A DNA stretch of 64,000 nucleotides from Candidatus Bathyarchaeota archaeon (GTDB lineage: Archaea; Thermoproteota; Bathyarchaeia; Bathyarchaeales; Bathycorpusculaceae), in contig CAWABA010000004.1 in NCBI GenBank assembly GCA_963780185.1, forward strand, positions 1 to 64,000, read 5' to 3'. Below, piece by piece: positions 22,389 to 37,810 of this stretch; positions within the stretch are counted from its first letter, which is position 1; each line of letters opens with the position of its first letter. A program made the position numbers and the translations under genes. The notes under the pieces are model-generated. The model did no database searches. It saw only the letters and a program-made list of their open reading frames with translations, and was not told the origin of the DNA.

Positions 22389-23039
22389 TTAACTGCCCGA
22401 GTTAGCTAGAGCGCATGCTTGAACGTTGCATTCTTGGTAGTACATTGCTTGTGCTGTGTAGAGGGTGACGCTTACTGTTAAGCCGATGTCGTTTATGGTA
22501 ACGCTGTCAGGGTTAACTATGTAGATCAGCATTGTGTAACCTGATCGAAGAACCAGGTCTGTCGTAGCATATTCGAAAGTATACAAGGTTCCGCTTCTGT
22601 CGCTAGGGTTTAGATAGAAAGACTGCGTTGTTGCTTGTCTACTTTGGGCCGCCATAGTGGGCTGGAAGTACATGTCTGAGGGCACAGGGTTATCAGTTAC
22701 CGAAAAAACTATGAATTGATCACCAGATGTCCACTGGGCTCCACCTGCCCATACGCTGTCTTGACCTCTGACTGTTATTTTATTGATAACTACGTCTCTG
22801 CCGCCAGTGTTAACGACTATGAGGGAACCCATTGAGTAGGTCGGGGTTCCTGGAGTTGCTGCAGGGTTGAGCCATACGTGAGCATCGTTCAAAGTAAGGC
22901 TTTCTTCTTGGACTCTTGTGCTGACCACGTTGATGGCGAAGTATGTGACTACGCTTGCCAATAGCACTGAAATGATCAGGATAATGATGGTAGTTACGAC
23001 TGTACTTAGAGCCCAACGATTCTTAAGCAGTTTTCTCAT
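22389..23039 (-). CDS. Archaeal pilin-like protein (class III signal peptide)
   Basis: MRKLLKNRWA|LSTVVTTIIILIISVLLA; VVNTGGRDV. Confidence 0.78.
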   Translation of the reverse strand: MRKLLKNRWALSTVVTTIIILIISVLLASVVTYFAINVVSTRVQEESLTLNDAHVWLNPAATPGTPTYSMGSLIVVNTGGRDVVINKITVRGQDSVWAGGAQWTSGDQFIVFSVTDNPVPSDMYFQPTMAAQSRQATTQSFYLNPSDRSGTLYTFEYATTDLVLRSGYTMLIYIVNPDSVTINDIGLTVSVTLYTAQAMYYQECNVQACALANSGS

Positions 23040-23363: not shown

Positions 23364-24458
23364 TTACTGACAAACGGGTACTAGAAAGTACCCACTCCAG
23401 GTAGCGCCATTTCTTGCTAGTCTGTAAAACCTTTTAAGAACCTCAAGAGATTTCAACGTAATCCATTTGCTCTGTTCATCTTCTTGTTCTATTCTCGTTG
23501 AAAAGCTGTCGTTAAACGTGTTTTCAAGTTTCCATCTGCCGTGGTCATCCTGTTTAGAGACTACCAGGTCGACGGCTTCTTGCATTCGCTTGTCTTTGTA
23601 GCCGAGTTTGGTCAGAATGTCTAGGACTTCAAGGGCGTCTGTCTGGTACATCATGGGAAAGCCAAAGTGCAGCCAACCAGGTTTTGATACGCGACTTAGG
23701 TCATGGCTCCTCTTGTGAATATGATGCTTGAGCATGTGTTCGGTTCCTTTTTCGATTGTGGCAACAACTTCCGCGGATCTTTCGCTTGCAGGAATTTCCG
23801 CCAAAGCCTTCAGCACTTTTACGGCGCCCATGTGGCAGGTGTGTCTTCCCCAGCACATCTCGAACCGATCGTAGGGCCAGCCTCTTGCTGGATCTTCTAC
23901 GCCGTCGTCAAACCTCTGGTATGTGGTGATCCAGTTGATTCCGCGTTGGACCCGTGGATCCTCAAGGCAGCCGAGTCTAATTAGACTCCAAACCATGTTG
24001 CCAGTCAAGCAAGGTATCACTTCGCTGTGCCGCCCGCCGCCAGTTTTCCCGCTTTCATGCATAGAGAAACCGCCGCTTTCACGATCCTGAGAATTCTCCA
24101 AAATGAACTCGCAAGCCTTCTTCACCCGTTCGTCCTTTCCGTCTGAACCCAACTCCGCCAAGATAACGAGTTGCCACACTGTTCCCCTGTACTTGGCTGT
24201 GTAGAAGCTCTCTGGAGTTTCCCAGAAACCTTCATTGTTCTGGTGGCTAAAGATGCTGGGAACTGCCCCCGCTTTCATGATGTCGTCTTTTGCTTCTCTG
24301 ACTTCAGGGTCATTTTCAGGTCTGCCTAGAATTTCAGTCAGCGTAAAATACCGTACTGACGGATTTTCTTTTTCCAGAAGCCAAGAAGCAGGATCGGCTT
24401 TCAACACAGATTTTAAATCAACCATGTTTTCGCCCAAAATCAAAGAGGGGGACGGCAC
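23364..24458 (-). CDS. Prenyltransferase/squalene-cyclase-like alpha-alpha toroid protein
   Basis: WLLEKENPSVRY, QNNEGFW, QRFDDG and KQDDHGRW (QW-like repeats). Confidence 0.72.
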   Translation of the reverse strand: MPSPSLILGENMVDLKSVLKADPASWLLEKENPSVRYFTLTEILGRPENDPEVREAKDDIMKAGAVPSIFSHQNNEGFWETPESFYTAKYRGTVWQLVILAELGSDGKDERVKKACEFILENSQDRESGGFSMHESGKTGGGRHSEVIPCLTGNMVWSLIRLGCLEDPRVQRGINWITTYQRFDDGVEDPARGWPYDRFEMCWGRHTCHMGAVKVLKALAEIPASERSAEVVATIEKGTEHMLKHHIHKRSHDLSRVSKPGWLHFGFPMMYQTDALEVLDILTKLGYKDKRMQEAVDLVVSKQDDHGRWKLENTFNDSFSTRIEQEDEQSKWITLKSLEVLKRFYRLARNGATWSGYFLVPVCQ

Positions 24459-24762
24459 TATAAAAAAGCGTTTGCGAGAACCCAGCTAAAGTGTTTCCGC
24501 CAAAAAAAGAAAAAAGAGGGTTTTCTTTATAGTTTGGCTTGGTTTAAGCTTTTGAGTTTTGGCTTCCGCAAGAGGACTGCGCCAGCTACGACAGCCACTC
24601 TAGCCAGCAACAGATTAGCAGCAAAAGTCGCTGTCTGGGGCTAGCTTTTGCCATCCACTTAAATCTTGATTCTTTGTTATTGCAAAAGCATAAAAAGAGA
24701 ACTGCTAAATTGAATCTCTCTATTCAGGGGGCATTAACGCGAAAGGAAAAGCGGATATTGCA

Positions 24763-25515
24763 ATGGGCGGTGACCCTGTTTCCGAAATGGGTTGTCGGAT
24801 AGCGTTGATAATGCCCGTTTACAACGAGGCAGACACAATCAAAAGCACCGTCAGAGAATTCTACCAGAAAGTAGTTAGCAAAATGGACAATGTCGATATC
24901 TGGGCTTTCGAGGACGGCAGTAAAGACGAAACTAAGAAGACGCTCAAAGAATTAGAAGATGAGTTCCCTCTTTTCCATGCAAAGACCACAGCGGAAAGGA
25001 AAGGTTATCCTCGAGCTATGAGAGAAGCGTTTCTTAACATCAACACAAGCGACTACGATTACGTGGTGGCGGTGGATTCTGACGGGCAGTATGAACCAGA
25101 CGATTTCTTCAAGTTATGGAGCATTATGCAAAGTGACGCGCCAGACATAGTTATGGGAAGACGAATGATTCGACGTGAACCTGCTTACCGCCGTATGCTT
25201 TCCCGCGGGCTGCAGGTTTTGGAGAAAGTTATGTTTTCCGTGCAATGCAAGGATGTGACAAGTGTAATGCGGCTCATGAAAGTTGACACCGCACACGAAA
25301 TAGCCAAGGAAATACGGTACAGCCCATACAACTTTTGGCTTGAATTCACAGCGCGGATGTCTCTGACCAGCTACAGAATCGTTGAAGTCCCCATTTCCTA
25401 CCGTGAACGCGAAGGCGGCAGCCGAGTGTACAGTGTAAAGAAGATGCCTTCGGTTGTCATGTCGGAGTTCCGCGCGTTAAGAGCTGTAAGACAAGAGCAT
25501 TCAAAAGCCAAATGA
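24763..25515 (+). CDS. GT2 glycosyltransferase (dolichol-phosphate mannose synthase-like)
   Basis: MPVYNE, EDGSKD, GYPRA, DSDGQY and EVPISYRER. Confidence 0.88.
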   Translation: MGGDPVSEMGCRIALIMPVYNEADTIKSTVREFYQKVVSKMDNVDIWAFEDGSKDETKKTLKELEDEFPLFHAKTTAERKGYPRAMREAFLNINTSDYDYVVAVDSDGQYEPDDFFKLWSIMQSDAPDIVMGRRMIRREPAYRRMLSRGLQVLEKVMFSVQCKDVTSVMRLMKVDTAHEIAKEIRYSPYNFWLEFTARMSLTSYRIVEVPISYREREGGSRVYSVKKMPSVVMSEFRALRAVRQEHSKAK

Positions 25516-25578
25516 GAAAGGACACCTCAGCTCGATTCGTAGCATTTTTTCGTCTAAAAATCCAGACAGGAAGCACGT

Positions 25579-26760
25579 CTATGTTGGTAGATTGGGTTGG
25601 GTTTGACTGTTTTTTGCCCCTCCAAACCGTGAGCTTATTTTTTTGAAGCTCTCTCTTGTCCGCTCCACCAGCATGAAACGCTCGATGCAGACGATTATCA
25701 TGATGAACACGAAAACCCACGTGAATCCGAATAATTCTCCGTACGTGTTGTGGAAAAGCATCCCTGCAGCGTACCCGCTGTGCATAATAACGAGAACGAT
25801 GAAGCAGATTCTGAAGACGGCGGAGCAGAAAGTGCCGAAAAGACCGATGATGAAGTAGATAGATTTTCTGGTGCCTGAAATGTTCGTTCTCTTAAATAAA
25901 ACTAGAATTATCAGCAGGTAAAGAATCAAACTGTAGACTCCTGCGCAAGCCCACGAGACTGAGACGCTTGCGATTCTGCCTGCAGCACTAACTGTCAAAC
26001 TAGGAACCGAGGAGCCACCTACTTGTACGGGATAATTTAACTGGACTCCATAGCCTAAGAAGTCAAAGAGGGCGGCGCTTGTGGCCGTTATGGGAAGAGC
26101 TATTTCTTGAAGGGGTCGGAAAAGGCCGAATTGATAAATTGTGTCAAGCATGTATGCAACGCTGATTGCTCCTAGGAGAGAAAAGGAAATTGAGAATATC
26201 CTTAATCCTTTTGCTTTATAAGCTAAGAGGACAGCGCTCAGAAAGAAGACAAAAAACACGATGTATTCCACTGACAGCGGCCATTGAAGGTTTAGGAAGT
26301 CTGAAGGTTGACCGGAGGCGGTCACGCTGGGAATTCCGATGTTATGTCCCATTTTCAACAATGCCAAATCTAAACCGAAAAAATTGGTAGCTAAGACATA
26401 AAATGTTGGAATTATTGCACATATGAGGGACGCGGTGATTAATTTGCGGTTTACGGGTTTCTTTTTAACGATGTCTTGCCAGCCAATCGCTGATTCAATA
26501 ATTAAGAACCATGCGAAGAACAGGTAGAACATTCTGCCTTTCCACGTTACGTCGAAACTGAAGTTCTGGATTAGAAAAGTGTTTTTCCAAGGTACAAAGC
26601 TGTTGGTTGAAGGATTAAAGCGGTAATTGAAGCCTTGAAGGTGGTAGTAGTCGAGAAATATCAGCAGCACAATGGGCACGGCGATGCTTATCATCAACGC
26701 TATGTGGAACCAGTATTTTTTTAAATCGACCGAACCCATCCCCCGCTTTTGATAAACCAT
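25579..26760 (-). CDS. Archaeosortase/exosortase-family transpeptidase
   Basis: Multi-TM protein with the Cys-Arg-His triad context VSWACAGVYS / AVFRI / LFHNTYGE. Confidence 0.8.
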   Translation of the reverse strand: MVYQKRGMGSVDLKKYWFHIALMISIAVPIVLLIFLDYYHLQGFNYRFNPSTNSFVPWKNTFLIQNFSFDVTWKGRMFYLFFAWFLIIESAIGWQDIVKKKPVNRKLITASLICAIIPTFYVLATNFFGLDLALLKMGHNIGIPSVTASGQPSDFLNLQWPLSVEYIVFFVFFLSAVLLAYKAKGLRIFSISFSLLGAISVAYMLDTIYQFGLFRPLQEIALPITATSAALFDFLGYGVQLNYPVQVGGSSVPSLTVSAAGRIASVSVSWACAGVYSLILYLLIILVLFKRTNISGTRKSIYFIIGLFGTFCSAVFRICFIVLVIMHSGYAAGMLFHNTYGELFGFTWVFVFIMIIVCIERFMLVERTRESFKKISSRFGGAKNSQTQPNLPT

Positions 26761-26852
26761 TTTGATACTCTCAACTACCTTTTAGATTTTTGCCTAAGAA
26801 CACCCATCAAACGTCAACTTTGCCTTTTTGACAGGAGAATGGATATTCAAAG

Positions 26853-29800
26853 GTGTCAGAACCCAGATTTTGCAATTGCTTTAATACATCCTACTGCAAT
26901 ATGGGGAAACACGTTTGCGCCAGATTCAAGTCAACGGTAAACTGCATTTGGGGAGGGAGAGGCAAAGTGGAAAACGAAGGACCAGAAAACCGCCAAAGAG
27001 AAACCAAGGAAGACCTGCTAGTTCCCTTGTTGATATTGACTTTTATAGCGTGCGCTTGGCTTGTTTACACTTACGAAAACCAAAATTGGCTGATTGCGTT
27101 CCAGCAAGTCGAGTCATGGATAGCTCACCCAACAATCATTTACACTTCAACTCAAATTGTAGGAATCCCATTGGCTTTTTTAGCCACCATCGAAGTTCTG
27201 ATTCTGGGAGCCGCATGCTCTTATCTGCTGTTAAACAACGAAAAAGACGTGGGCATAAGAGTTCTTAGCGTGCTCGGTTTAGGATTTGGCCTAACAGGAT
27301 TAATTACCATAATTTTCGGAGTCTTAGGAAACCTTTACCAGCTTCCCCTTAACATAACAATTTTGCTTCTCATCGGCATTCTTCTCTCAGCGATAGTCTA
27401 TAAGAAAAAGCGAAACCAAAACCTAACGATAAAAGAATCCTTGACTCCTCACATTTCCTTTCCTAATCTTAAGGCACCGCCAAACATCAAGTTCTGGTTA
27501 CCTGCTTGCGTCGCAATCGGCATAACTTTTTTCTTCTGTTTTTACCACGCGCTTCTAACGGTGATAGTGCATTGGGACGCCGTTGTATACCATGCCGCAA
27601 TGGCTAACATTATGTACAATTACCATGCAATTCCAGTCATTGCGGGTCCTTCAATCGGGATTGAGATGAGCGCCAATTTTCCGCCTCTTTTTTCCGCCGT
27701 CGGCGCATTCTATTATATTCAGATAGGCACGGTTGAGGATTTCTTTTTAAGGATAATTCCCCCCGTGATGGGGCTTCTAACGGTTTTGGCAACTTATAAA
27801 ATCGGGGAGATTCTCGTCGGAAAAAAACTTGGATTGATATCCGCTTTGTTTCTTGCAATTACTCCTTTGTTCTTCCGATATTCAATATATGCTACAAGCT
27901 ACTCTACATTGACCTTCTTCTGCACCGCTTCGATTCTGTTTTTGCTGCTGGCTATGAACAGAGGGGACACCAAATACTGGATTAGCTGCGGACTCTTCTA
28001 CGGGTTCGCGCTGCTAACGTCATACTTGGGTCTGTATCTTGCACCGTTTTTTATTCTGGCACTAATTTTGTTTTTGTATCAACGGAAAAATACTTTCAGA
28101 ATAAACATAAAAAAAGTTTCTCTACTGATTGTAGCAGTTTTGGTAATCGGCGGCGTTTGGTACCTACGAAACTACAATGAGGTTGGAAACCCGATTTACC
28201 CCAATGCCTACACCATTTTAGGCGGACTCCACATTGACCCTATAATAGAGCAAGCTACTTTTAACAGCATAAAAACGTCTGCGACTATAAGCTTCTTCGG
28301 CGCCGCCAACCCTTCGCTCTTCGACAAAATCATGATTTTCCTCACCTACAGAACGCATTTTCCGTCAGTTTCCTTCTTAACTGTCTTGGGACTTGTGTTG
28401 ATTCCGACTTTAAAAAACAAGAAGTTCTGGCTGATAACCGTGTGGCCTCTATCTTTGAGTTTTCTTGTTCTCAGCGGCATTTCATGGGGTTTCCCCCGTC
28501 ACATGGTTTTTGCAATGCCAGGATTTGCCCTTATAAGCGCTCTGCCTCTCGTGAAGTTATTGGATATATGTAAAAAATACGACTCAAGCAACTCCAAAAA
28601 TGCGCTTCTGAAAATAAGAAATCCCTTGCCGGCCATTCGCAAAAGCAACCTAATCAGGCTGGGCCTCGTAATAATTCTCCTCGGGGCTTTTCTTTTTCCT
28701 AGCTTAACATTAAGCATGGGGGGCAAAGTTATGGCAGACAACCTTGCTGACCAGGTTCCAAACGACTATCTATGGTTTTTGGAACACCCCAACGCTGATA
28801 CATGGACTGTCCTCGACAGGCTATATCCTGAAGCGGTCGCTTGGCAATTCATGAACGAAAACTTGGGTATCAATCAAAAAGCCGCTACTGTTGAGAACAG
28901 AATATACGACGTTAAAAACTGCAATAACAGTTACTTCTTCTACCTTGACGGTTGGGAAGCACGACCACTTTACAACATTACCGACCCCAAACTTATGATT
29001 CAGTTCCTCCGCAGCCAAAACGTGAAATACGTAATTGATGTCCTTTGGCCCCGTGAAGACGACGACATTTTCAATCTGTTACCGCTAACCCAGTACCTTG
29101 GGTCAGCGTATTTTCCACCGATAATAGATACGGGAGGCAACCCCAACATCTACAATGTGGGTCCCTTTGAATCTCCAGTAACCGACAATTCGCCTACAAC
29201 CGTTTCCTTGAATCTAGCTGGCTGGGGCGCCGTGCAATCCGTGGGCGGAGTGAAAACGCAGTCGGTTATAGCTGGAAACGACTCCGCTCGGCTCTACGTC
29301 GCCACTCCAGGCTTGACCACCGTAGCCATAACTTACCTTGACGTGGGCACTGACCCAGTTAGCATAAACATGCGTGACCCTTACTCGTTAGACTGGGTCA
29401 CTGGCTACGCAGATATCCAAAAAACAAACACAGGCACGTGGAAAACCTACGATTTTCTTGCGCCGTACAGTGATAAGGGATCCGTTGAACTGGCTTTACA
29501 CGCTTACGATGAAAACTTCACTGTAAGCAACATAAACGCTTCACCGTTCCAGTCGCCTGGTCGTGTCACATTGAACGCGTTCAACAGCACCCAAACCTTC
29601 GACATAACAAACAAGACTACTCCCCCAACCCTGATGGTGTACCTGCCCATTTTGGACGCGAATGAAAACCTCATCATTAACTCAACCACGTATGGAAAAG
29701 CCATGTGCATTGAACTCTACGACGGCGTAATTCAACCTGGCGAAAACACAGGCTGGTGGCTGAACCATGATTTTGTTACAAGGTCGCCTGACACAACTGC

Positions 29801-29954
29801 ATATGGTGTGCAGAATCCCTCGCTGTTCTGGGAAACCAAGAATTCAGGCTTATACACAATGGTCATAGTGTTAAGGGAACCCTATAACAATCAGAACACG
29901 AAAATGGATATTATAGTTATGAAGGAGGACAATTTGACACGGCTCAACGGATAA
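26853..29954 (+). CDS. GT-C fold (ArnT/PMT-like) membrane glycosyltransferase with large extracellular C-terminal domain; real start probably ~26967
   Basis: Many TM helices, HWDAVVYH loop, PPLF, WYLRN...GNPIYP, FPRH. Confidence 0.78.
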   Translation: MSEPRFCNCFNTSYCNMGKHVCARFKSTVNCIWGGRGKVENEGPENRQRETKEDLLVPLLILTFIACAWLVYTYENQNWLIAFQQVESWIAHPTIIYTSTQIVGIPLAFLATIEVLILGAACSYLLLNNEKDVGIRVLSVLGLGFGLTGLITIIFGVLGNLYQLPLNITILLLIGILLSAIVYKKKRNQNLTIKESLTPHISFPNLKAPPNIKFWLPACVAIGITFFFCFYHALLTVIVHWDAVVYHAAMANIMYNYHAIPVIAGPSIGIEMSANFPPLFSAVGAFYYIQIGTVEDFFLRIIPPVMGLLTVLATYKIGEILVGKKLGLISALFLAITPLFFRYSIYATSYSTLTFFCTASILFLLLAMNRGDTKYWISCGLFYGFALLTSYLGLYLAPFFILALILFLYQRKNTFRINIKKVSLLIVAVLVIGGVWYLRNYNEVGNPIYPNAYTILGGLHIDPIIEQATFNSIKTSATISFFGAANPSLFDKIMIFLTYRTHFPSVSFLTVLGLVLIPTLKNKKFWLITVWPLSLSFLVLSGISWGFPRHMVFAMPGFALISALPLVKLLDICKKYDSSNSKNALLKIRNPLPAIRKSNLIRLGLVIILLGAFLFPSLTLSMGGKVMADNLADQVPNDYLWFLEHPNADTWTVLDRLYPEAVAWQFMNENLGINQKAATVENRIYDVKNCNNSYFFYLDGWEARPLYNITDPKLMIQFLRSQNVKYVIDVLWPREDDDIFNLLPLTQYLGSAYFPPIIDTGGNPNIYNVGPFESPVTDNSPTTVSLNLAGWGAVQSVGGVKTQSVIAGNDSARLYVATPGLTTVAITYLDVGTDPVSINMRDPYSLDWVTGYADIQKTNTGTWKTYDFLAPYSDKGSVELALHAYDENFTVSNINASPFQSPGRVTLNAFNSTQTFDITNKTTPPTLMVYLPILDANENLIINSTTYGKAMCIELYDGVIQPGENTGWWLNHDFVTRSPDTTAYGVQNPSLFWETKNSGLYTMVIVLREPYNNQNTKMDIIVMKEDNLTRLNG

Positions 29955-30051
29955 ACACGTCTTCCTGCGTTTTTTGTCGACACCTCCAGGCAACGATTTT
30001 TAATGATACACAGCCGTTCGCTTACGCCGAAAGTTTGGAGCGAAAGAAACA

Positions 30052-32391
30052 ATGAGCATGCGAAAGTACGCCGCGGCAAGCGTCGCCGCCGTTTCGTTGG
30101 TTGTTGCTTTTGCAGTTTTCCTTCTGGGGGCGCCCATGGAATCTGTTCCGTTAGACGGCGGATGGCTGGGTCTACTATTCATATTCGCGAACGGGTTCTT
30201 TCTCTCATACATTCTGAACCCACAAAAAACGGGTTCTCTGGAAAGGCTGCTTCTCACAGTCGGGTTAGGCTTCGGCTTAACCTTCACAGTTATGGTTCTA
30301 ATGGGGCTTTTCTGGGAGTTCTCCCTGTTCTCGGTGCTTCTAACCCAAATAATCCTATTAGCCATTTTAAGCGCAACCGCGTTTCTGCGAGGATTCCGCC
30401 CAAAAGCGCCCAATTTGCGTTTGCCCACCAAAAACAATTTTCCAACGACAAAACTCGGCTTCCTCCACGCCGTCTGCGTAGCGGTCATTGGAGTGCTTGT
30501 GGCTGTTTCGATTTATGAGGCGATTTCGCTTCCTGCCACGGAGTGGGATTCACTGGCTTACGGGGTAAACTACGCAAAAATAATGTTCCAGAAGGGTACT
30601 ATTCCGTTTATTGCGGGACCGTCGATTGGGATTGAGATGAGTGCAAGCTACCCGCCGGGTGTCCAGCTTGTCGCGGTCTTCTTGTATGTGTTCGCGGGAA
30701 ACGTCAATGACTTCTACTATCGGCTGCTTCCGCCGATCTTCGGCTTAGCAACCTTTGCCGTCACATACAAGTTTGCGATGCTGCTCAGCAAGAACAGAAC
30801 GATTTCGCTTTACGCAGTTATTGCTTTGAGCGCTGTCCCCGTTTTCTGGGACCTCTTCGTCATAGAAAGCTATCTTATGGCGTTAACCTTGATGTTTACC
30901 TTGTGTGGCTTCTTCTTCTACAAAGCCTATGTGTCAAATCCCCCTGACACCAAAAAATACGAAATCCTTGGCGTCTTGTTCTGCGCTTTTGCTTCGCTTA
31001 TCAGTTACATTGGACTGTTTTCATTCGGCGTTCTGCTGCTTTACGCCCTGCACAAAAAGAAAAACTTGAAGCAACTTGCTCTGTCGGCAACGTTAGGAAT
31101 CATCGTTGTTTTGCCTTGGTACTTACGCAATCTTGTGCTGCTTGGCAACCCGCTTTACCCCTTCTTCGGCGTCGGCAAATACCTGTATCCGCTGCTGGAG
31201 AAATCCACGTCGCTTAGTTTTCAACAGTACAATGTTCTTCCCGAGTTTTGGTGGCTAAGCACGATTTGCAAAGTAGGCGCCGCCGCCTCGATTGTCGCCC
31301 TCGTGTACTTCACGTTTTCTAAACGAAAAGATTTCTTCACGGTTCTGCCCATTTACTCTGTGTTCGCGGCTGCCGTAATAATGGGGACGCATATAGCTTT
31401 CTTAAGATACGCAATAATCGCTTTCCCCGTTTTGGCTGTGGTTCTTTCTTACGCCATCCATTTGGCTCCGAAGAAACGCAGGTTTTCACTGTACGTTTCC
31501 GTCGCTCTGCTTGGGTTCCTTGTTCTTTCAAGCGCGTTTATGTTGCCTTACATAAGCTCTGCTAAGCTTGAGCCTAAACCAAACGAAACCGAATCGCAGT
31601 ATCTGGCACGTGCGTTCGGCGAAGGTGACGCTTGGCAATGGATTAACCAAAACACTCCGCGGAACGCTACTGTCGCCACTTTCGACATCAAAGAATACTA
31701 CCTTGACCGCAACGTTTTTGCCCTTGACGGAAACGAGTCTGTGCCGCTCTATCAAATGAGCACCTATCAAGAATGCTTAAGTTTCTTCCAAGAAAAAGGC
31801 GTATCATACGTATTGAGCGTCCCATGGGCAAGCCCCGGAGATACTCGAATGCCGCTTGCCTACAAGTGGTGCCCCTTCATTCGGTACCTCGGTGACCCCA
31901 AATATTTCCCGCCACTGTTTGTAGGCGACGGCGGCGCAACCGTTTATCACGTTGGCCCCCTTGACCAGGAAGCAGTAGACCAATTCTTCGCCCAAAACAA
32001 CATGGTTACCCCAACCAAACAAGTCACGTTCAACTTAACAATAACCAACAGTTCAATTCCCGCATTAGGCAAATCATATCTGCCTATCCCTGATGATTAC
32101 AAAGAAGGCAATATGACGGCTTCCATCAACTGCTCCGACCCCCTTGAAATCCAACTGTGGTATGGGCAAGTTCCGCTCAGCAAGCTTGAAAACCGTACAG
32201 GAATATATCAGCTTGAAGCGCAATGGTCTACGCAACGCGGCAACTCTTCAGCTCCGCTGGGTTCCTCATTCACATGGCACGTCGACCTCGCGGGATACTT
32301 CACGCTCATAGCCATAGACAAACGAACAGGCTTAACGCAGCCGCTTAACGCAACAGTAAACATTGTTTTCCGAAACTACCTGGGAAACTAA
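30052..32391 (+). CDS. GT-C fold (ArnT/PMT-like) membrane glycosyltransferase, paralog of the upstream gene
   Basis: EWDSLAY, IAGPSIGIEMSASYPP, WYLRN...GNPLYP, LRY. Confidence 0.78.
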   Translation: MSMRKYAAASVAAVSLVVAFAVFLLGAPMESVPLDGGWLGLLFIFANGFFLSYILNPQKTGSLERLLLTVGLGFGLTFTVMVLMGLFWEFSLFSVLLTQIILLAILSATAFLRGFRPKAPNLRLPTKNNFPTTKLGFLHAVCVAVIGVLVAVSIYEAISLPATEWDSLAYGVNYAKIMFQKGTIPFIAGPSIGIEMSASYPPGVQLVAVFLYVFAGNVNDFYYRLLPPIFGLATFAVTYKFAMLLSKNRTISLYAVIALSAVPVFWDLFVIESYLMALTLMFTLCGFFFYKAYVSNPPDTKKYEILGVLFCAFASLISYIGLFSFGVLLLYALHKKKNLKQLALSATLGIIVVLPWYLRNLVLLGNPLYPFFGVGKYLYPLLEKSTSLSFQQYNVLPEFWWLSTICKVGAAASIVALVYFTFSKRKDFFTVLPIYSVFAAAVIMGTHIAFLRYAIIAFPVLAVVLSYAIHLAPKKRRFSLYVSVALLGFLVLSSAFMLPYISSAKLEPKPNETESQYLARAFGEGDAWQWINQNTPRNATVATFDIKEYYLDRNVFALDGNESVPLYQMSTYQECLSFFQEKGVSYVLSVPWASPGDTRMPLAYKWCPFIRYLGDPKYFPPLFVGDGGATVYHVGPLDQEAVDQFFAQNNMVTPTKQVTFNLTITNSSIPALGKSYLPIPDDYKEGNMTASINCSDPLEIQLWYGQVPLSKLENRTGIYQLEAQWSTQRGNSSAPLGSSFTWHVDLAGYFTLIAIDKRTGLTQPLNATVNIVFRNYLGN

Positions 32392-32541
32392 AAATCCCAT
32401 GGTCAAATCTAACTGACGAGGCAGCAATCACCTTCTTGCTTTTTAACCGTGACAGGGGTGTCAGTAGGCTTCATAGAAAAACTTTTAAACAAAACGTGTA
32501 GAGATAGACTGCCATCAATACAATAGGAGAGAAAAAATGCA

Positions 32542-33366
32542 TTGAAAATGGCAGTAATTGTAGGTTTTTGCATGCTGGCATTGTGTTTTTTGTCATGTTT
32601 GATTGTTGTAGTTCCTGCGCATGCTCAGGGATCCGGCGGCACACACATTGACTACGAGACGAGTAATGCTCCAACGATAGACGGACATTGGACTTCAGGT
32701 TCAGAGTGGACAGATGGCAAGAGAGAAAACGTTGGATCCAACGCTATATTCTATGACGAGTGGTCATATGTCTCAACCGTTAATGAAAACATCATCATCG
32801 AAACGATGGATAACACCAACGACCCAGGCGACTACTTCCAAATATGCTTCGACGGCACAAACAACCTCGGCAGCGCTCCACAAACAGACGACTTCATGAT
32901 AAACATCACCGGCCACACAACATGCACGTGGTACCAAGGAACGGGATCAACTTGGGCAGCCATCGCGACCCCTGGTTCGTCAGACTTTGCCTGGAGTCAA
33001 TCTTTGGGCACATCCCCCGTCTACACAGCTCAACACTATATGCTAGAACTCACGGTCAACAAACAAGGTTTTGCAGCCCTCGGTATGCAGTTCAACATGA
33101 GGATTGCAGTCTACGACGCACACACAGGCGGATACGGACTCCAAGCGTACCCTGCAGGCAGCACCGCCAATAACCCGTCCGGCTGGGAATACATAGACTA
33201 CTCATCGAGTGCAAACTCAAGCCAAGACCCACTACCAATTCCTGAGAGCATGAACATCGCCATCATAATGGTGCTATCCGTCGTTGCCGTAACAGCTGGC
33301 TCAGTGATTTTCAGCAAAAAGTCCAAAACAGCAAATCTTGCAAGCAAACAGAATCCCACGTTGTAA
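32542..33366 (+). CDS. Secreted DOMON/CBM9-like protein with a C-terminal IPE-TM-basic sorting signal
   Basis: Signal peptide; PTIDGHW...EW; C-terminus PIPESMNIAIIMVLSVVAVTAGSVIFSKKSK. Confidence 0.7.
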   Translation: MKMAVIVGFCMLALCFLSCLIVVVPAHAQGSGGTHIDYETSNAPTIDGHWTSGSEWTDGKRENVGSNAIFYDEWSYVSTVNENIIIETMDNTNDPGDYFQICFDGTNNLGSAPQTDDFMINITGHTTCTWYQGTGSTWAAIATPGSSDFAWSQSLGTSPVYTAQHYMLELTVNKQGFAALGMQFNMRIAVYDAHTGGYGLQAYPAGSTANNPSGWEYIDYSSSANSSQDPLPIPESMNIAIIMVLSVVAVTAGSVIFSKKSKTANLASKQNPTL

Positions 33367-33475
33367 GACTTTTGTTACCTTGTTCCCTTTTTCCTTCTTT
33401 TTTGTTTCAGCAAACCCAACGCGCCCATAGCAATCTTTAGATGTCTAAGTTTGAGGCGTGAGGGCTTTTTTCCGT

Positions 33476-34411
33476 TTATTGATTCAGCGTGCCTTTTTTG
33501 CCCGATGCTTTGAGCCTTTGTGACAGAAGGGGCAAAAGCTTCACCGCAACCACGAATGCCACGGTGGCGTAGAGGATTCCGCCCAAGATGTCGGTGAAGT
33601 AGTGTTCGCCAAGGTAAACCGCGCTAAACCACGTTCCAACTGGAATCGCCAAAACCGGGAGAGCCTTCCATTTCCAAAACCTGAACGCGAAAAGAAAAAC
33701 AAGCCAAGGCAACGCAGAGTGGAGACTCGGGAAGGCGGCGTACAGGTTGGGTCCCAAAAAATCGTAGAGGGTTTTGTAAGCGGGTACGCCTAAGCTTTTG
33801 TCAACTGAGGAGGACAGTATGCGGGTGAGACCGTGGCTTGTTAAGGCGGTGTTGAGCCATGGTGGCGCAACTGGATAAGCGAGAAAAGTAGCTAAGGAGG
33901 TGTACGTCACAACAAATAGCGACGCGGTGTATTTCCAGAAGTCTTTATGGTATCTTAGCCAGACGATAAAGCCGAAGGCTGTTGGGACAAAGAAATATAT
34001 TGTGTAGAAAAAGGCGCCTGTAAAATTTAGGGCAGGCGTGGTTAAGTAATGCTGCAGAACCAGGTTCGGGTTGTTTCCAGCGAAGAGCACCATGTCAAAG
34101 TTGTACGGTCCATAGTTAATGTGGAATTTTGAGACTGTTCCCACTAGGCCATTTAGTGTTTCATATGACACGAATATCAGAAGGAACGGCACCCAGTCTT
34201 TTACGAACCGCCAAATTTTCTTGCTGTAGGCTGCGTAGACTAGAAGAACCAAGACTGCGAATTCGGCGCCGGGAATGATGTCGTTGGTGAGTTCAAGGAC
34301 GGCAACTACTGCGACAAAGATGGCGGAGAACAGGACGGCTAGGATTCTTGAGAAATCACGGTCCGTTTTGGACTTCTCTTTTGGCGCCTGTTCTTCTTTA
34401 GTGTATGTCAT
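33476..34411 (-). CDS. PAP2 superfamily Aur1/IPC-synthase-like membrane phosphotransferase or phosphatase
   Basis: YPVAPPW, AAFPSLH and GEHYFTD motifs. Confidence 0.82.
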   Translation of the reverse strand: MTYTKEEQAPKEKSKTDRDFSRILAVLFSAIFVAVVAVLELTNDIIPGAEFAVLVLLVYAAYSKKIWRFVKDWVPFLLIFVSYETLNGLVGTVSKFHINYGPYNFDMVLFAGNNPNLVLQHYLTTPALNFTGAFFYTIYFFVPTAFGFIVWLRYHKDFWKYTASLFVVTYTSLATFLAYPVAPPWLNTALTSHGLTRILSSSVDKSLGVPAYKTLYDFLGPNLYAAFPSLHSALPWLVFLFAFRFWKWKALPVLAIPVGTWFSAVYLGEHYFTDILGGILYATVAFVVAVKLLPLLSQRLKASGKKGTLNQ

Positions 34412-34630: not shown

Positions 34631-37600
34631 TTACTGTATTTGTACGTTGTCGATGAAGATTTCTTGTCCGTATTGGGTGCGTCCTGTTAGGTAGCCGTTG
34701 CCTTGCAGTATGATGCTTGTGAGGCTGGCAGATGATGAAAGCCCTTGTCCTGTCCAGTCAGCGGGTAGGTTTCTGCTGAATTGTATCCATTGTCCAGCTG
34801 TGAAGGTGCCTTGTATGGTTCCCATGTTGATGACTTTCATGGTTGAAGTGCTGGTTGGCGCTGTTGCTGGACTGCTTCCCCACCAGTAAACCAGTTGTTG
34901 ACCGTTGCTTGCAGTCAGGGTTATCTGGAAGGAGTAGTATCCGGCAATTGAGCTTACTCCGCCGTTTCCGTTGTTGTAGATGTACATCGAAAGTGAGCCT
35001 GCAGCGTTAGGTATTGAGCTGAGGGCGATTGCAGAGCTAAATGTGTTTGTCAGAGATGCCGCAGCTGTTCCAGTGCCTGAAATTGTTGTATCTATTTCCG
35101 CGTATGCTCCTGAAAGTGCTGGTGCGCTGTCGCCTGTTACGTGGCTTTGTGCGTAGCCTGAACCGCTTGATGTCCACGGCGCGGTTTGGTCAAATCCGCC
35201 GTCTGGTACTTGGTTAGGAGTGATGGTGAATGTTGTTGTTGCTGAAGTGAGACCTGTGAACGCCGCTGTGATGGTTGAGGAGCCTGCAGCTGAGTCTTGG
35301 TAGTAGAAGCTGGCTGAGCTAGAGCCGCTTGCGATGGAAACTGAAGTTATCGGGGTTCCTGTGCCGCCTGCGTTGTTGTAGAATTTGCCTGTCGATGAAG
35401 ATGCTGTCAGCGTTATTGTTAGGGCTGAGCCTGCGTTGACTCCGCGACCGCTTGAATCCTGCTGAGCCACAGTTATCACTGATGAAACCTGGTTTACGTA
35501 GAGTGCTTGGCTTGTTCCCGCAGTGAACTTCAGTTGGGTTGCTGAGCCTGTAACGGTGAATACGGTGGTGGCTGGGGTGTATCCTGTGACGGATGCGGTG
35601 ATTGTGGGTGCTCCTTGAGAGGTGTCTTTGTAGTAAAAGCTGGCAGAATAAGGCGAAGATGTGCTGATTGTTACGGTTGTTATGGCGTGTGTTCCAGCGG
35701 AGTCAGAGTAGAATGTTCCAGATGGGGAACTTGAAGTCAAGGTTACGGTTAAGGCACTGCCTGGATTATGTGAATTGCCATTTGTATTCTGGCTTTGAAC
35801 GGTGATGGCTGCAGATACCTTGATTTGTAGGCAAGTTTTGAGTCTTGCCCGCTGTGAAGGCGAGTTGGTTGCCGTTAATTGTGAATTGGGTGGTTGCTGA
35901 AGTTAGTCCTGAGGATGAGGCTGTGAGGGTTGGGGTGCCGCTGCTGCTGTCGTAGTAGTAGAAGCTTGCTGAGCTTGAACCGGCTGCGATGCTGATTGAA
36001 GTTATCCTGTTTGATCCGCCGGAATCAGAGTAGAATCGTCCGTTGCTGGAAGATGACGCCAAATTGACTGTGATTGCTCCTGTGGTCGTCGGGTTGCTAA
36101 CTGAGTCTTGTCTTTGCACGGTAATTACCGATGAAACATCGCTGGTGGTTATCGATTGACTGATGCCTGCGGTGTAGACCAGTTTGGAGGCGGCGGCTGC
36201 GTTTACTGTTATTAGCGGGCTAATGTTGGTTACGGTGCCGTCTGATGCGGTGATTGTTTCTGAGCCTGCAGTCTTCAACGTGACGGTGAAGGTTTTTGTG
36301 CCAGAGTTAAGGGTTGAATCGCTGGGGAGAATTGCCTGGCTGTCGGATGATGTGAAGTGAATTGTTCCCGTGTAGGTTGTGACGGTGTTTTGTGATTCGT
36401 CTTGGGCTGTTACTGTAACGCTGAAAGATGAGCCTGCGGTCGCTGAAGTTGGGACGGTGATGGCGAATTGGTCAAGTAGCGGGTTCGGGTTGCTGGAAGG
36501 TGTAGGTGTAGCCGTCGGGCCAGATGAAGGTGTAGGCGATGACGTTGGGGGCGGTGTTGGGGTTGGAGTTGGGCTGGCAACAGTCAACGTGGTACTTACT
36601 GGTGAGTATCCTGAAGCTGAAGCAGTCAAAGTTGCTGAAACAACACTTGAGTCTTTATAATAGAAGCTAACTGTGCTTGAGCCGCTGCCTGTCGCTATGG
36701 ACGTAACTTGTGTGGTTCCGCCTGCATCAGAATAGAAAGCGCCGCTTGAAGAGGTCGTTGACAACGCGACGTTTATGCCGCCGGTTGTTACCGGGTTCCC
36801 TGAGCCGTCTTGGCACTGCACCGTGATTACGGAAGACACTGCATTAACCAGTACGTTTTGTCCTGCGCCCACGGTTAGGATGAGTCTTGGGGTTGTTGTT
36901 GAGACGAAGTTGGCGGTTATTGTTCCTGCGCCGTTGATTTGTGCGGTGGTTGAAGCAGAGGTTGGGCTGTTGATTTGGATGCTTCCTGTGAAAGTCCAAG
37001 ATGAAAACTGGTATCCGCTGTTAGCAGTAGCGGCGATGCCTAGGATTGTGCCTGTGGCAATTGTTTGGGATCCTGATGGGTTCACGGTTCCTCCGGTGCC
37101 TGCTGCGAGAACAACTGTAACGCTGGTGGGTTGTGTGCCAGATGAGCCAGAACCGTTTGAGCCCGAGCTAGTGGCGGAGCCGCTTGAAGTGCCAGCGACT
37201 TGCGCGGATGTTCCTTCGACAGTGACTATTTTGATTTTGTCGCCTGGGTTAAAGGGGCAGTTTATGACAAGTGCGACTGTTTGACCTGCACCTATCGGGA
37301 CTAATGCTCCTGTGGCAACATCTTGCCCGTTAGCTCTAAGAATGCCTTCAAGCACATTGTTGACGTATACGCTGCCATCCTGCTTCAGATGAACTGTGCC
37401 TTGGCCCGTGTTTTGGACGTAAACAACCAAGTTTCCTCCAGTTGTGTAGCTTTGTATCTGTATGGCGTTGCCCGACTTCGATGTGCCTGAGCTTAAATAA
37501 CCCATTATCCAAGCATAAGCCACAAGCGAAGCCACTACGGCTATTGCAATCATCAGCAAAACAGCTATTATCGGCGAGATTGCTTTGAATGAACGTTTAA

Positions 37601-37634
37601 ATCTAGTTAGGTTTTGCAAAATTCCTTTCTCCAC
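34631..37634 (-). CDS. Giant pilin-like adhesin (~1000 aa once the frameshift at ~35740-35830 is joined)
   Basis: Class III signal KA|ISPIIAVLLMIAIAVVASLV; four FYSD...SFYY-D Ig-like repeats; PT linker; C-terminal CBM-like beta-sandwich (FIDNV). Confidence 0.78.
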
Positions 37635-37810
37635 AAAAATTTTCGAAGCTTAAAAGTTAGCGCTTCTTTACTTTCTTCAATCAAACTTGCAAGCGCCTGA
37701 TATTTAAGAGTGTATAGAACAAAATTCCACAAAAACTCGGATAAAATCCTTAAAGAAAAAGAGAAATTTGTTGTTAGATTCCAAAAAAAGAAAGAGGGGG
37801 TTTGTTCGGT

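Follow-up and report, generated by a model that had tools for sequence, protein, structure and literature searches.

Why does an archaeosortase gene of a Candidatus Bathyarchaeota archaeon lie among genes for membrane glycosyltransferases, and which of these genes belong together? The locus is part of the window, a stretch of 64,000 nucleotides at the start of contig CAWABA010000004.1 (its genome, G000, is 2.75 Mb). An earlier note, made from the sequence, had read six adjacent genes as a candidate glycosylphosphatidylinositol (GPI)-like anchoring system: a GT2 glycosyltransferase, the sortase, two paralogous GT-C glycosyltransferases, a secreted protein with a sorting-signal-like C-terminus, and an Aur1-like PAP2 enzyme. 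Archaeosortases are widespread, and Bathyarchaeia are abundant in sediments. To our knowledge Haloferax ArtA is the only archaeosortase that has been studied, and even there the lipid acceptor is an inferred one; the bathyarchaeial cell surface is itself poorly known. We find that the GT2, the sortase, the two GT-Cs, and the tailed protein are a real module that is inherited together. The PAP2 gene lies outside it.

Five genes are inherited together

The six open reading frames (ORFs) were recovered as the earlier note had drawn them (Table 1), and domain, signature, and alignment evidence agrees with the identities it gave them. Conservation was assessed in two samples. A set of 28 Bathyarchaeia loci that encode a sortase relative came from a pattern scan in which each GTDB species was represented by one genome, and each locus comprised the sortase-like gene and up to 10 kb on either side. 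The 28 loci were searched by tblastn with the window proteins, and all of their ORFs were clustered into families. The sortase is 51-73% identical to that of the window in 23 of them (the orthologous set) and 30-39% identical in the other five (the distant set). The second sample was a phyletic one of 151 Bathyarchaeia genomes drawn evenly from the class, of which 95 have a completeness of 90% or more.

The gene set recurs in the orthologous loci. A GT-C gene is present within 10 kb of the sortase in 20/23, and one further locus (L018) adds a fragment at a contig edge. Both GT-Cs are present in 15/23, and in four others a contig end interrupts the locus. A GT-C is missing altogether only from L021 and L024, and L021 is a second copy whose genome also has a complete locus. 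The GT2 is found within 10 kb in 17/23 loci, either as an orthologue (69-80% identity) or as a paralogue (34-37%), and a homologue of the tailed protein is found within the same distance in 16/23. GT-C genes were not detected in any of the five distant-sortase loci. Two gene orders occur. In the first, which is that of the window, the sortase is divergent from GT-C 1 and GT-C 2. The second reads sortase - (tailed protein) - GT2 - short-chain dehydrogenase/reductase (SDR) - flippase-like protein - tailed protein - GT-C 2 - GT-C 1. The existence of two orders points to selection on the gene set and not on a single inherited arrangement. Because the set recurs in relatives in both orders, the clustering of the first five genes is far beyond chance.

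The phyletic sample gives the same grouping. Sortase relatives were found in 41 of the 151 genomes, and they reach 55% identity or more in only five (G000, G038, G032, G121, and G142). The relative in G148 is 42% identical, and the others are 24-39% identical. Orthologues of GT-C 1 (54-69% identity) occur in exactly these five genomes, on the contig of the sortase and beside a GT-C 2 match; the seven other GT-C 1 matches in the sample are weak and local. The profile of the tailed protein exceeds 300 bits only in the same five genomes, again on the contig of the sortase, and 15 other genomes have weaker relatives. Within the genus of the window, G038 has the sortase, the GT-C pair, the tailed protein, and its class of tail. 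We did not detect a type-1 sortase, the GT-C pair, the protein, or the tail class in G094, G102, G127, and G133, which belong to that genus and are 95-97% complete; G102 carries only a sortase relative of 32% identity. Because the sampled genomes are kin, the telling part of the phyletic pattern is that the genes are present or absent together within a single genus.

The idea that the sortase and the glycosylation genes are incidental neighbors without a common function has some points in its favor. The genome of the window has at least 11 GT-C genes of the PMT_2 type, so one near any given gene is not rare, and the flippase-like and SDR genes of the second gene order are missing from the window's cluster. 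This idea does not account for a gene set repeated in 20/23 loci in two arrangements, or for the exact agreement across 151 genomes in presence and absence of the sortase orthologue, the GT-C pair, and the CBM9-like tailed protein, including gain or loss within one genus. The tail-class profile, moreover, is found in the same five genomes and two others. Incidental proximity is therefore extremely improbable.

The PAP2 gene behaves differently from the other five. Its homologues were not detected by tblastn in any of the 28 related loci. Five further genomes were searched, four carrying the module plus G148, and a homologue was found only in G038 (54% identity), where it is located on contig C6 and the module on C22. 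The G038 homologue is closest in identity to a second copy in the window's genome, which is also on a contig numbered C6. These data place PAP2 outside the module. The gene is the last in a minus-strand run of pilin-like genes, and it adjoins the module in the window's genome alone. Co-conservation of the proposed six-gene cassette thus holds for the GT2, the sortase, both GT-Cs, and the tailed protein, and fails for PAP2.

Relatives add other families to the module. A membrane protein of 340 residues with the MprF flippase domain (LPG_synthase_TM; PF03706, 2.4e-21) is encoded in 19/23 loci, and an SDR of the NAD-dependent epimerase/dehydratase family (PF01370, 1.1e-45) in 13/23. A PGF-pre-PGF-domain protein with a transmembrane (TM) segment and basic C-terminus (TIGR04213, 40 bits against a cut-off of 28) lies between GT-C 1 and the sortase in 13/23 loci, and a third, distant GT-C paralogue (family f10; hhalign probability 96.5%) is found in 5/23. 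The window does not encode this PGF-pre-PGF protein. In the example at L022:8821-9600 (minus strand), a P-x-P-W-W motif comes with a TM helix and a basic tail; the protein may have an accessory role or be another type of substrate. Elsewhere in the window's genome a flippase-like LPG_synthase_TM gene (C6:453872-455059; L035:7873-9060, minus strand; 4.4e-27) lies 1.5 kb from a second gene of the tail class described below, with a DUF996 gene between the two. The window's module has no flippase-like gene of its own, and this one might provide that function in trans.

Table 1. Features of the locus and its surroundings in the window
Feature	Coordinates	Strand	Basis or remark
Small pilin	22389-23039	-	
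Alpha-alpha-toroid protein	23364-24458	-	Weak squalene-hopene-cyclase/prenyltransferase matches (SQHop_cyclase_C 9e-8)
Relic tail-coding gene end (...VAVVAGAVLLRKPKLKSLNQAKL-stop)	24527-24640	-	Tail profile 23.9 bits; 37-residue open frame
GT2, polyprenyl-phosphate-sugar synthase-like (DPMS/ArnC/AglJ-like), soluble or peripheral	24763-25515	+	PF00535
Archaeosortase-family protein ("type 1" Bathyarchaeia clade)	25579-26760	-	TIGR04178; Cys/Arg/His; divergent from GT-C 1
GT-C 1, PMT_2 family, with C-terminal outer domain and two beta-sandwich modules	26853-29954	+	PMT_2
GT-C 2, paralogue of GT-C 1	30052-32391	+	Homology to GT-C 1
Secreted CBM9-fold protein (274 aa), proposed cognate substrate	32542-33366	+	IPES, TM, KKSK C-terminus
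C-terminal sorting signal of the CBM9-fold protein	33223-33336	+	Consensus IPE-x-LSIGVVVLLSS-x-AV...LRKRPK
PAP2_3 (Aur1-like) membrane enzyme, outside the conserved module	33476-34411	-	PF14378
Large surface proteins, two with pilin-like N-termini	34631-39880	-	

The sortase has the family signature and catalytic residues

The sortase matches the exosortase/archaeosortase signature TIGR04178 at 34.2 bits against a cut-off of 23 (38.4 bits when the genome was searched in six frames) and has seven hydrophobic segments. When the window protein was aligned with 16 homologues (52-73% identity), all 17 rows had C272, R317, and H337, and R361 was conserved in at least 90%. These data bear out its description as a Cys/Arg/His archaeosortase. 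By signature and residues it is a true member of the exosortase/archaeosortase family, and it is predicted to be catalytic. The search against named subfamily models, which the earlier note had called for, did not assign it to any of them. The highest-scoring model was thaumarchaeosortase (TIGR04297) at 50 bits against a cut-off of 250, and archaeosortase C (TIGR03762) gave 25.4 bits against 100. Since these scores are far under the cut-offs, the protein is not a thaumarchaeosortase or an ArtC. The Pfam model Exosortase_EpsH (PF09721) gave 17.9 bits against a gathering threshold of 25.7, and a PF09721 match is precomputed on most of its homologues. There are 212 homologues, which are bathyarchaeial wherever they are named and carry the JGI name "thaumarchaeosortase". 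The distant loci L030-L033 split off as one clade in the sortase tree, and little else is resolved.

The genome encodes two other sortase-family genes, on contigs C11 and C10. The C11 gene (C11:165338-166369, minus strand; L002:1318-2349) is of the widespread distant type and adjoins PriS and GINS, a neighborhood that recurs in L024-L026, L032, and L034. Its region contains PriS, GINS, MCM, and a UDP-GlcNAc 2-epimerase-like ORF; a GT-C or a tailed protein was not detected there. At the conserved Arg the reading frame is interrupted, and the His-motif region resumes in a different one, which may reflect a real frameshift or an assembly error. The C10 gene (C10:2-1486, plus strand; L001) is truncated by the start of the contig and has a C-terminal extension of about 400 residues. 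Its best named models are the bacterial exosortases XrtV and XrtD, and all scores are far under the cut-offs.

The tailed protein carries a probable private sorting signal

The tailed protein begins with a signal-like helix and ends with IPES, a hydrophobic helix, and KKSK. No Pfam or NCBIfam model matched it, CBM9_1 included. An AlphaFold2 (AF2) model built with 20 homologues has a pLDDT of 85.2, and the best Foldseek matches are family 9 carbohydrate-binding modules (CBM9; 7nwn at 1.5e-8 and 1i82 at 2.3e-8, TMt 0.65-0.67). Weaker matches include other DOMON-like domains, among them heme-binding ones (2ivf_C and 4qi3). Because the DOMON/CBM9 fold also occurs in heme proteins, the fold does not establish sugar binding by the tailed protein.

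The tail defines a narrow class. In alignment A4 (18 tails) P, E, L, A, and K are invariant. The tail is highly conserved across orthologues and differs from the other PE-type tails of the genome. A hidden Markov model (HMM) built from the tails of the orthologues identified only two ORFs in the window's genome, the module protein at 62 bits and C6:456625-457386 at 45 bits; the next score was 14 bits. The second ORF encodes a Ser/Thr/Gly-rich beta-protein of 253 residues that is unrelated to the module protein. The profile is present in 7 of the 151 genomes, namely the five module genomes (2-8 proteins each), G148, and, marginally, G090. It was absent from the other sampled genomes that have only the distant type of sortase. 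The co-occurrence of enzyme and sorting signal that characterizes the superfamily is therefore seen in the phyletic sample (7/151 genomes) and in the loci (16/23). The tailed protein is very probably the substrate of the window's sortase, as the earlier note had proposed. The restricted tail class suggests a dedicated sortase with few cognate substrates and a private signal. Dedicated arrangements of this kind have reportedly been described for other exosortase subfamilies.

Immediately before the GT2 gene lies a relic of the tail class. Stops interrupt its frame upstream, and its last 23 residues are nearly identical to the C-terminus of the C6:456625-457386 protein. It is probably what is left of a decayed substrate gene that once stood next to the GT2 gene. 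A distant CBM9-like protein with an IPEF-type tail is encoded directly upstream of a distant-type sortase at L031:598-1311 and L034:8883-9596 (both plus strand). Because a CBM9-like protein also goes with a sortase of the distant type, this association is perhaps older than the GT-C module.

Other PE-type tails are numerous in the genome. A motif search ([IVLP]PE-x, then a hydrophobic stretch, then basic residues) identified 41 of 5,758 ORFs, a few of them evident false positives. These approximately 40 tails form at least three visible sub-classes: an S/T/P linker with VPE[FL], F-A-LPEY-x-LG, and IPESP-x-LLL. One protein other than that of the module passes PEFG-CTERM (TIGR04296; 25.1 bits against a cut-off of 25), and the module protein's tail did not match this model at E up to 10. 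No Pfam sorting-domain model matched the tails at E up to 10 with a Pfam copy that may lack PEF-CTERM_ARCH; the Atlas names that family at a score of 0.90.

The glycosyltransferases resemble lipid-linked sugar enzymes

The GT2 matches PF00535 at 1.5e-20 and has no hydrophobic segment. Its closest solved relatives are the dolichyl-phosphate mannose (Dol-P-Man) synthase of Pyrococcus furiosus (5mlz, 1.4e-9) and three ArnC entries (about 1e-6). Scores against the named NCBIfam equivalogs (AglJ, Dol-P-hexose transferase, ArnC, and PpgS) are all far under the cut-offs, for example 60 against 325 for AglJ and 41.5 against 375 for Dol-P-hexose transferase.

GT-C 1 matches PMT_2 (PF13231) at 8.7e-17 (62.2 bits against a threshold of 26.1). 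Its orthologues align only from residue 34-45 onward, and the true start is probably some 35-45 codons downstream of the start of the ORF. GT-C 2 did not match any Pfam family and is assigned to the GT-C class because it is homologous to GT-C 1 (about 29% identity across about 570-600 residues; tblastn 1.5e-44 and 7.8e-40). The two proteins have in common W241-D242 of the first outer loop, which is invariant in a 30-row alignment. GT-C 2 shares further motifs with GT-C 1 in alignment A3 and has 15 hydrophobic windows. Sequence searches of the PDB with both proteins gave no match at E up to 1.

The fold of GT-C 1 was compared with known enzymes using an AF2 model built with 30 rows. AglB and STT3 ranked highest in Foldseek (1.6e-9 and below), followed by AftD, ArnT, and Emb. 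The VIA comparison of residues 205-772 gave yeast STT3 (Z 21.2, rmsd 5.3 Å over 429 residues), ArnT (Z 21.0, 5.9 Å over 405), AglB (Z 20.8, 3.4 Å over 315), Pmt4 (Z 19.0, 4.0 Å over 360), and Pmt1-Pmt2 (Z 18.0, 4.0 Å over 360). Lower scores were obtained with ALG9 (15.5), DPY19 (about 15), Emb/Aft enzymes (13-15), PIG-U (12.4), and PimE (10.9). PIG-M, PIG-V, and PIG-B/Z chains do not appear among the VIA matches listed, an absence from a list that does not amount to exclusion. The Atlas groups the core with ArnT-like/PMT_2 clusters. PMT_2 was the only Pfam family matched by GT-C 1 at E up to 0.01, with no PIG-M, PIG-V, or PIG-B/Z family found. In the structure comparison the best folds were those of oligosaccharyltransferase (OST), ArnT, and PMT, and the GPI-related chains PIG-U and PimE scored lower. 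Beyond the core, the model has a CBM6-like domain at residues 777-898 (Z 11.1) and a domain like the collagen-binding domain (CBD) of ColG at residues 904-1024 (Z 10.7).

The OST-like fold does not make the pair a general OST. GT-C 1 did not match the oligosaccharyltransferase family PF02516 and scored 31.8 against a cut-off of 450 with TIGR04154. A separate canonical AglB/STT3 gene is located at C1:184367-185506 in the same genome, and the GT-C pair is therefore not the general OST. The PMT_2-family genes counted above, all over the Pfam cut-off, are a large expansion for an archaeal genome of this size.

A glycosylation route may be coupled to sorting

The conserved set has the make-up expected of a pathway of the Arn/Gtr/AglD-AglS type, in which a monosaccharide is carried on polyprenyl phosphate, and this pathway is combined with a sortase and the substrate of that sortase. 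From the observed gene identities, catalytic residues, folds, co-inheritance, and restricted tail class, we infer a scheme for cleavage, anchoring, sugar, and acceptor. The SDR would tailor a sugar nucleotide, and on the cytoplasmic side the DPMS/ArnC-like GT2 would charge dolichyl phosphate with the sugar. The MprF-type flippase-like protein would then flip the lipid-linked sugar; its gene, like that of the SDR, belongs to the modules of relatives and not to that of the window. The two GT-Cs would transfer the sugar at the outer face, where their CBM-like C-terminal domains would point outward, and the acceptors are taken to be sorted surface proteins or the glycans on them. The type-1 sortase (Cys272/Arg317) would recognize the PE-[S/T/G] motif, the LLSSxAV helix, and the RKRPK-like basic residues, a private signal borne by the CBM9-fold protein of the module and a handful of others. 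Cleavage near the PE motif would leave the protein on the cell surface, and by analogy with Haloferax ArtA it is probably anchored there covalently. The central proposition is that the GT-Cs glycosylate sorted surface proteins or their glycans while the sortase cuts off the tail at the PE motif, the protein remaining anchored. We prefer this reading, with arguments that we judge about evenly balanced for and against it. The earlier note had offered something similar as its alternative. The part that concerns sorted proteins fits the data better than a GPI-like anchor does. As for the neighboring pilins, they are not co-conserved with the module either, the small pilin having homologues in 2/28 loci and the large ones in 0/28.

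Several findings weigh against this reading. The substrate has a short linker before the PE motif and no long Ser/Thr/Pro stalk, and it therefore lacks an obvious target for O-glycosylation. The only N-x-T sequon that is widely shared by its orthologues (NST before PHW) is missing from the window copy. A glycan acceptor would be equally compatible with the CBM-like domains of the GT-Cs, for which a polymer would also do, and with the substrate's CBM9 fold. The model of GT-C 1 is of moderate confidence (pLDDT 68.5, pTM 0.65). The window's module is without flippase-like and SDR genes, and elsewhere its genome has only paralogues of 28-32% identity. The tail profile was built from orthologues and the genomes are kin, so its phyletic match is partly shared descent; the tail on a non-homologous protein in the window's genome is the independent element.

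The same features bear on the main rival, in which the product of the GT2 and the two GT-Cs is a surface polysaccharide or glycolipid, either built or decorated with sugar from polyprenyl phosphate, and the anchored CBM9-fold protein binds this product and tethers it to the cell. The sorted protein would then be a lectin-like partner and not a target of glycosylation, and the Emb/Aft enzymes would provide the analogy. This rival draws on the CBM9 fold of a substrate with no obvious glycosylated stalk, on the CBM6-like and CBD-like outer domains of GT-C 1 (Emb and AftD also bear CBMs), and on the third GT-C paralogue of some loci. Glycosyltransferase models associated with XrtG, XrtP, and XrtY are among the weak NCBIfam matches, and bacterial exosortases are reportedly most often located in extracellular polysaccharide (EPS) loci. 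On the other side, no polymerase, export, or chain-length gene was found among the conserved neighbors, the DOMON/CBM9 fold is shared with the heme proteins noted above, and the Emb/Aft enzymes score below OST, ArnT, and PMT (Z 13-15 against 18-21). We consider a surface-glycan function unlikely, though worth keeping in view.

The GPI-like anchor of the earlier note was tested against the same data. As proposed, with a glycosylated phospholipid, it is not supported: PAP2 is not conserved with the module, the GT-C fold is OST/ArnT/PMT-like, and no ethanolamine-phosphate transferase gene is among the neighbors. Since the module does not include the Aur1-like lipid enzyme, such an anchor is unlikely. 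A version without the PAP2 step can be formulated, in which the glycolipid or lipid-linked glycan of the route resolves the thioester of the sortase and is joined to the CBM9-fold protein. The strict co-inheritance of the sortase with the GT-C pair is in keeping with this version. Acceptor-making neighbors of a sortase also have a precedent: in Methanosarcina artA, pssA, and pssD are syntenic, and archaetidylethanolamine has been proposed as the nucleophile (PMC7157517). Matches to the phosphatidylserine decarboxylase family were not detected in the six genomes searched (G000, G038, G032, G121, G142, and G148; 92-100% complete), and the same search gave matches in Haloferax, Methanosarcina, and M. 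jannaschii, used as controls. For these six genomes the acceptor suggested for ArtA, archaetidylethanolamine, may therefore be unavailable. The gene content speaks against the anchor even in this form. Homologues of the PAP2/Aur1-like gene are present in 0/28 loci and in 1/5 further genomes, and the families conserved beyond the window's module are only the flippase-like protein, the SDR, the PGF-pre-PGF protein, and the third GT-C, which do not make up a GPI pathway. The conserved neighbors include no PIG-A/PIG-L-like or C13 transamidase gene. They also include no aminotransferase or ethanolamine-phosphate transferase, and for this reason no amine nucleophile is evident. No Pfam match to the GPI mannosyltransferase families was found for the GT-Cs. 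We regard the PAP2-free anchor as doubtful, and the corresponding claim, that the sortase joins the CBM9-fold protein to a glycan or glycolipid made by the GT2/flippase/GT-C route and not to a plain phospholipid, as improbable to a like extent.

Neighboring genes

PAP2 and the pilin-like genes are unrelated neighbors of the module. The PAP2_3 protein matches PF14378 at 2.1e-23 (83.5 bits against a threshold of 27). Its best PDB sequence match is the yeast inositol phosphorylceramide (IPC) synthase AUR1 (5e-7, residues 178-288), and it scores 61 against a cut-off of 480 with the phosphoinositol-dihydroceramide synthase model. The second copy in the genome, a 52% identical paralogue at C6:759185, lies between genes for a phosphate-binding protein and a phage-sheath-like protein, a context that is uninformative. 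The sheath-like gene (Phage_sheath_1 and Phage_sheath_1C; C6:761203-763293, L036:9204-11294, minus strand) resembles a phage tail sheath and may be part of a contractile injection system or a prophage remnant.

The run of pilin-like genes includes three large Ser/Thr/Gly-rich surface proteins, two of them with N-termini like those of archaeal type IV pilins. A 369-residue ORF among them resembles the repeats of a 622-residue ORF and is for this reason possibly part of a split gene. Homologues of the alpha-alpha-toroid protein, on the other side of the module, were found in 0/28 loci.

Implications and comparison with known systems

In the literature searched, there appears to be no description of a bathyarchaeial sortase subfamily that goes with two GT-Cs in tandem and a substrate of the CBM9 fold. 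The articles listed for archaeosortases in Bathyarchaeota are, by title or abstract, on other subjects. Archaeosortases with private substrates and a link of the superfamily to glycosylation genes are known kinds of arrangement, and NCBIfam includes models named for an archaeosortase-A-associated oligosaccharyltransferase and for the Xrt-associated glycosyltransferases mentioned above. The module is a compact and tractable unit, with one sortase, a small and well-folding substrate with a private signal, and glycosylation genes that are gained and lost jointly. It bears on what archaeosortases attach proteins to, on the coupling of sorting to glycosylation at the outer face, and on the role of the many archaeal PMT_2-type GT-Cs. 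The analogy with GPI, tempting as it is, is corrected by the finding that the adjacent lipid-headgroup enzyme is a neighbor by accident. A glycan or glycolipid acceptor, if true, would be an archaeal counterpart of sortase attachment to lipid II or of GPI anchoring.

The module has features in common with the ArtA/PGF-CTERM system of Haloferax volcanii. Both enzymes are polytopic membrane proteins of one superfamily, and both systems use a tripartite signal of motif, TM helix, and basic tail on secreted surface proteins. Cys173, Arg214, and Arg253 are critical in ArtA (PMC9263693). The window sortase also has a conserved Cys and Arg, and their equivalence to the ArtA residues is inferred from spacing. 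The differences are that the window motif is PE-[S/T/G] and that of ArtA is PGF, that the window sortase is a private paralogue with very few substrates locked to a GT2 and a tandem GT-C pair, and that the lipid route of the pssA/pssD type proposed for ArtA lacks a decarboxylase match in the six module-related genomes. The thaumarchaeosortase/PEFG-CTERM and ArtC/PEF-CTERM systems supply the best-scoring named models for the sortase, and the genome has PE-type tails in number, one passing PEFG-CTERM. The tail of the module is a separate class from these.

Eukaryotic GPI anchoring likewise combines a Dol-P-sugar synthase-like GT2, transferases of the GT-C fold, and a Cys enzyme that removes a C-terminal hydrophobic signal. 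It differs in its PIG-M, PIG-V, and PIG-B enzymes, which the GT-Cs of the module do not match, their fold being nearer to OST, ArnT, and PMT. It differs also in its PIG-A, PIG-L, and ethanolamine-phosphate transferase steps and in a C13 transamidase to which the sortase is unrelated. The PAP2 enzyme of the inositol-phospholipid type is not conserved with the module. The substrate shares the beta-sandwich of the CBM9 modules of Thermotoga Xyn10A (1i82) and Caldicellulosiruptor (7nwn), with Foldseek values of 1.5e-8 to 2.8e-8. It differs from them in sequence (13-14% identity) and in being a stand-alone protein with a sortase signal and not a module of a glycoside hydrolase.

GtrB/GtrA/GtrC and Haloferax AglD/AglR/AglS are three-component polyprenyl-phosphate-sugar glycosylation systems. 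Together with ArnC/ArnE-F/ArnT they resemble the module in the DPMS/ArnC-like GT2 and in the PMT_2/ArnT-like GT-Cs with an Asp in the outer loop, and the modules of relatives add a flippase-like membrane protein and a sugar-nucleotide SDR to this likeness. The module is unlike these systems in that it has two tandem GT-Cs, and a third in some loci, with large CBM-like outer domains, and in that its flippase-like protein is of the MprF type and not GtrA or ArnE/F. It is further set apart by the coupling of the whole to a sortase and its substrate.

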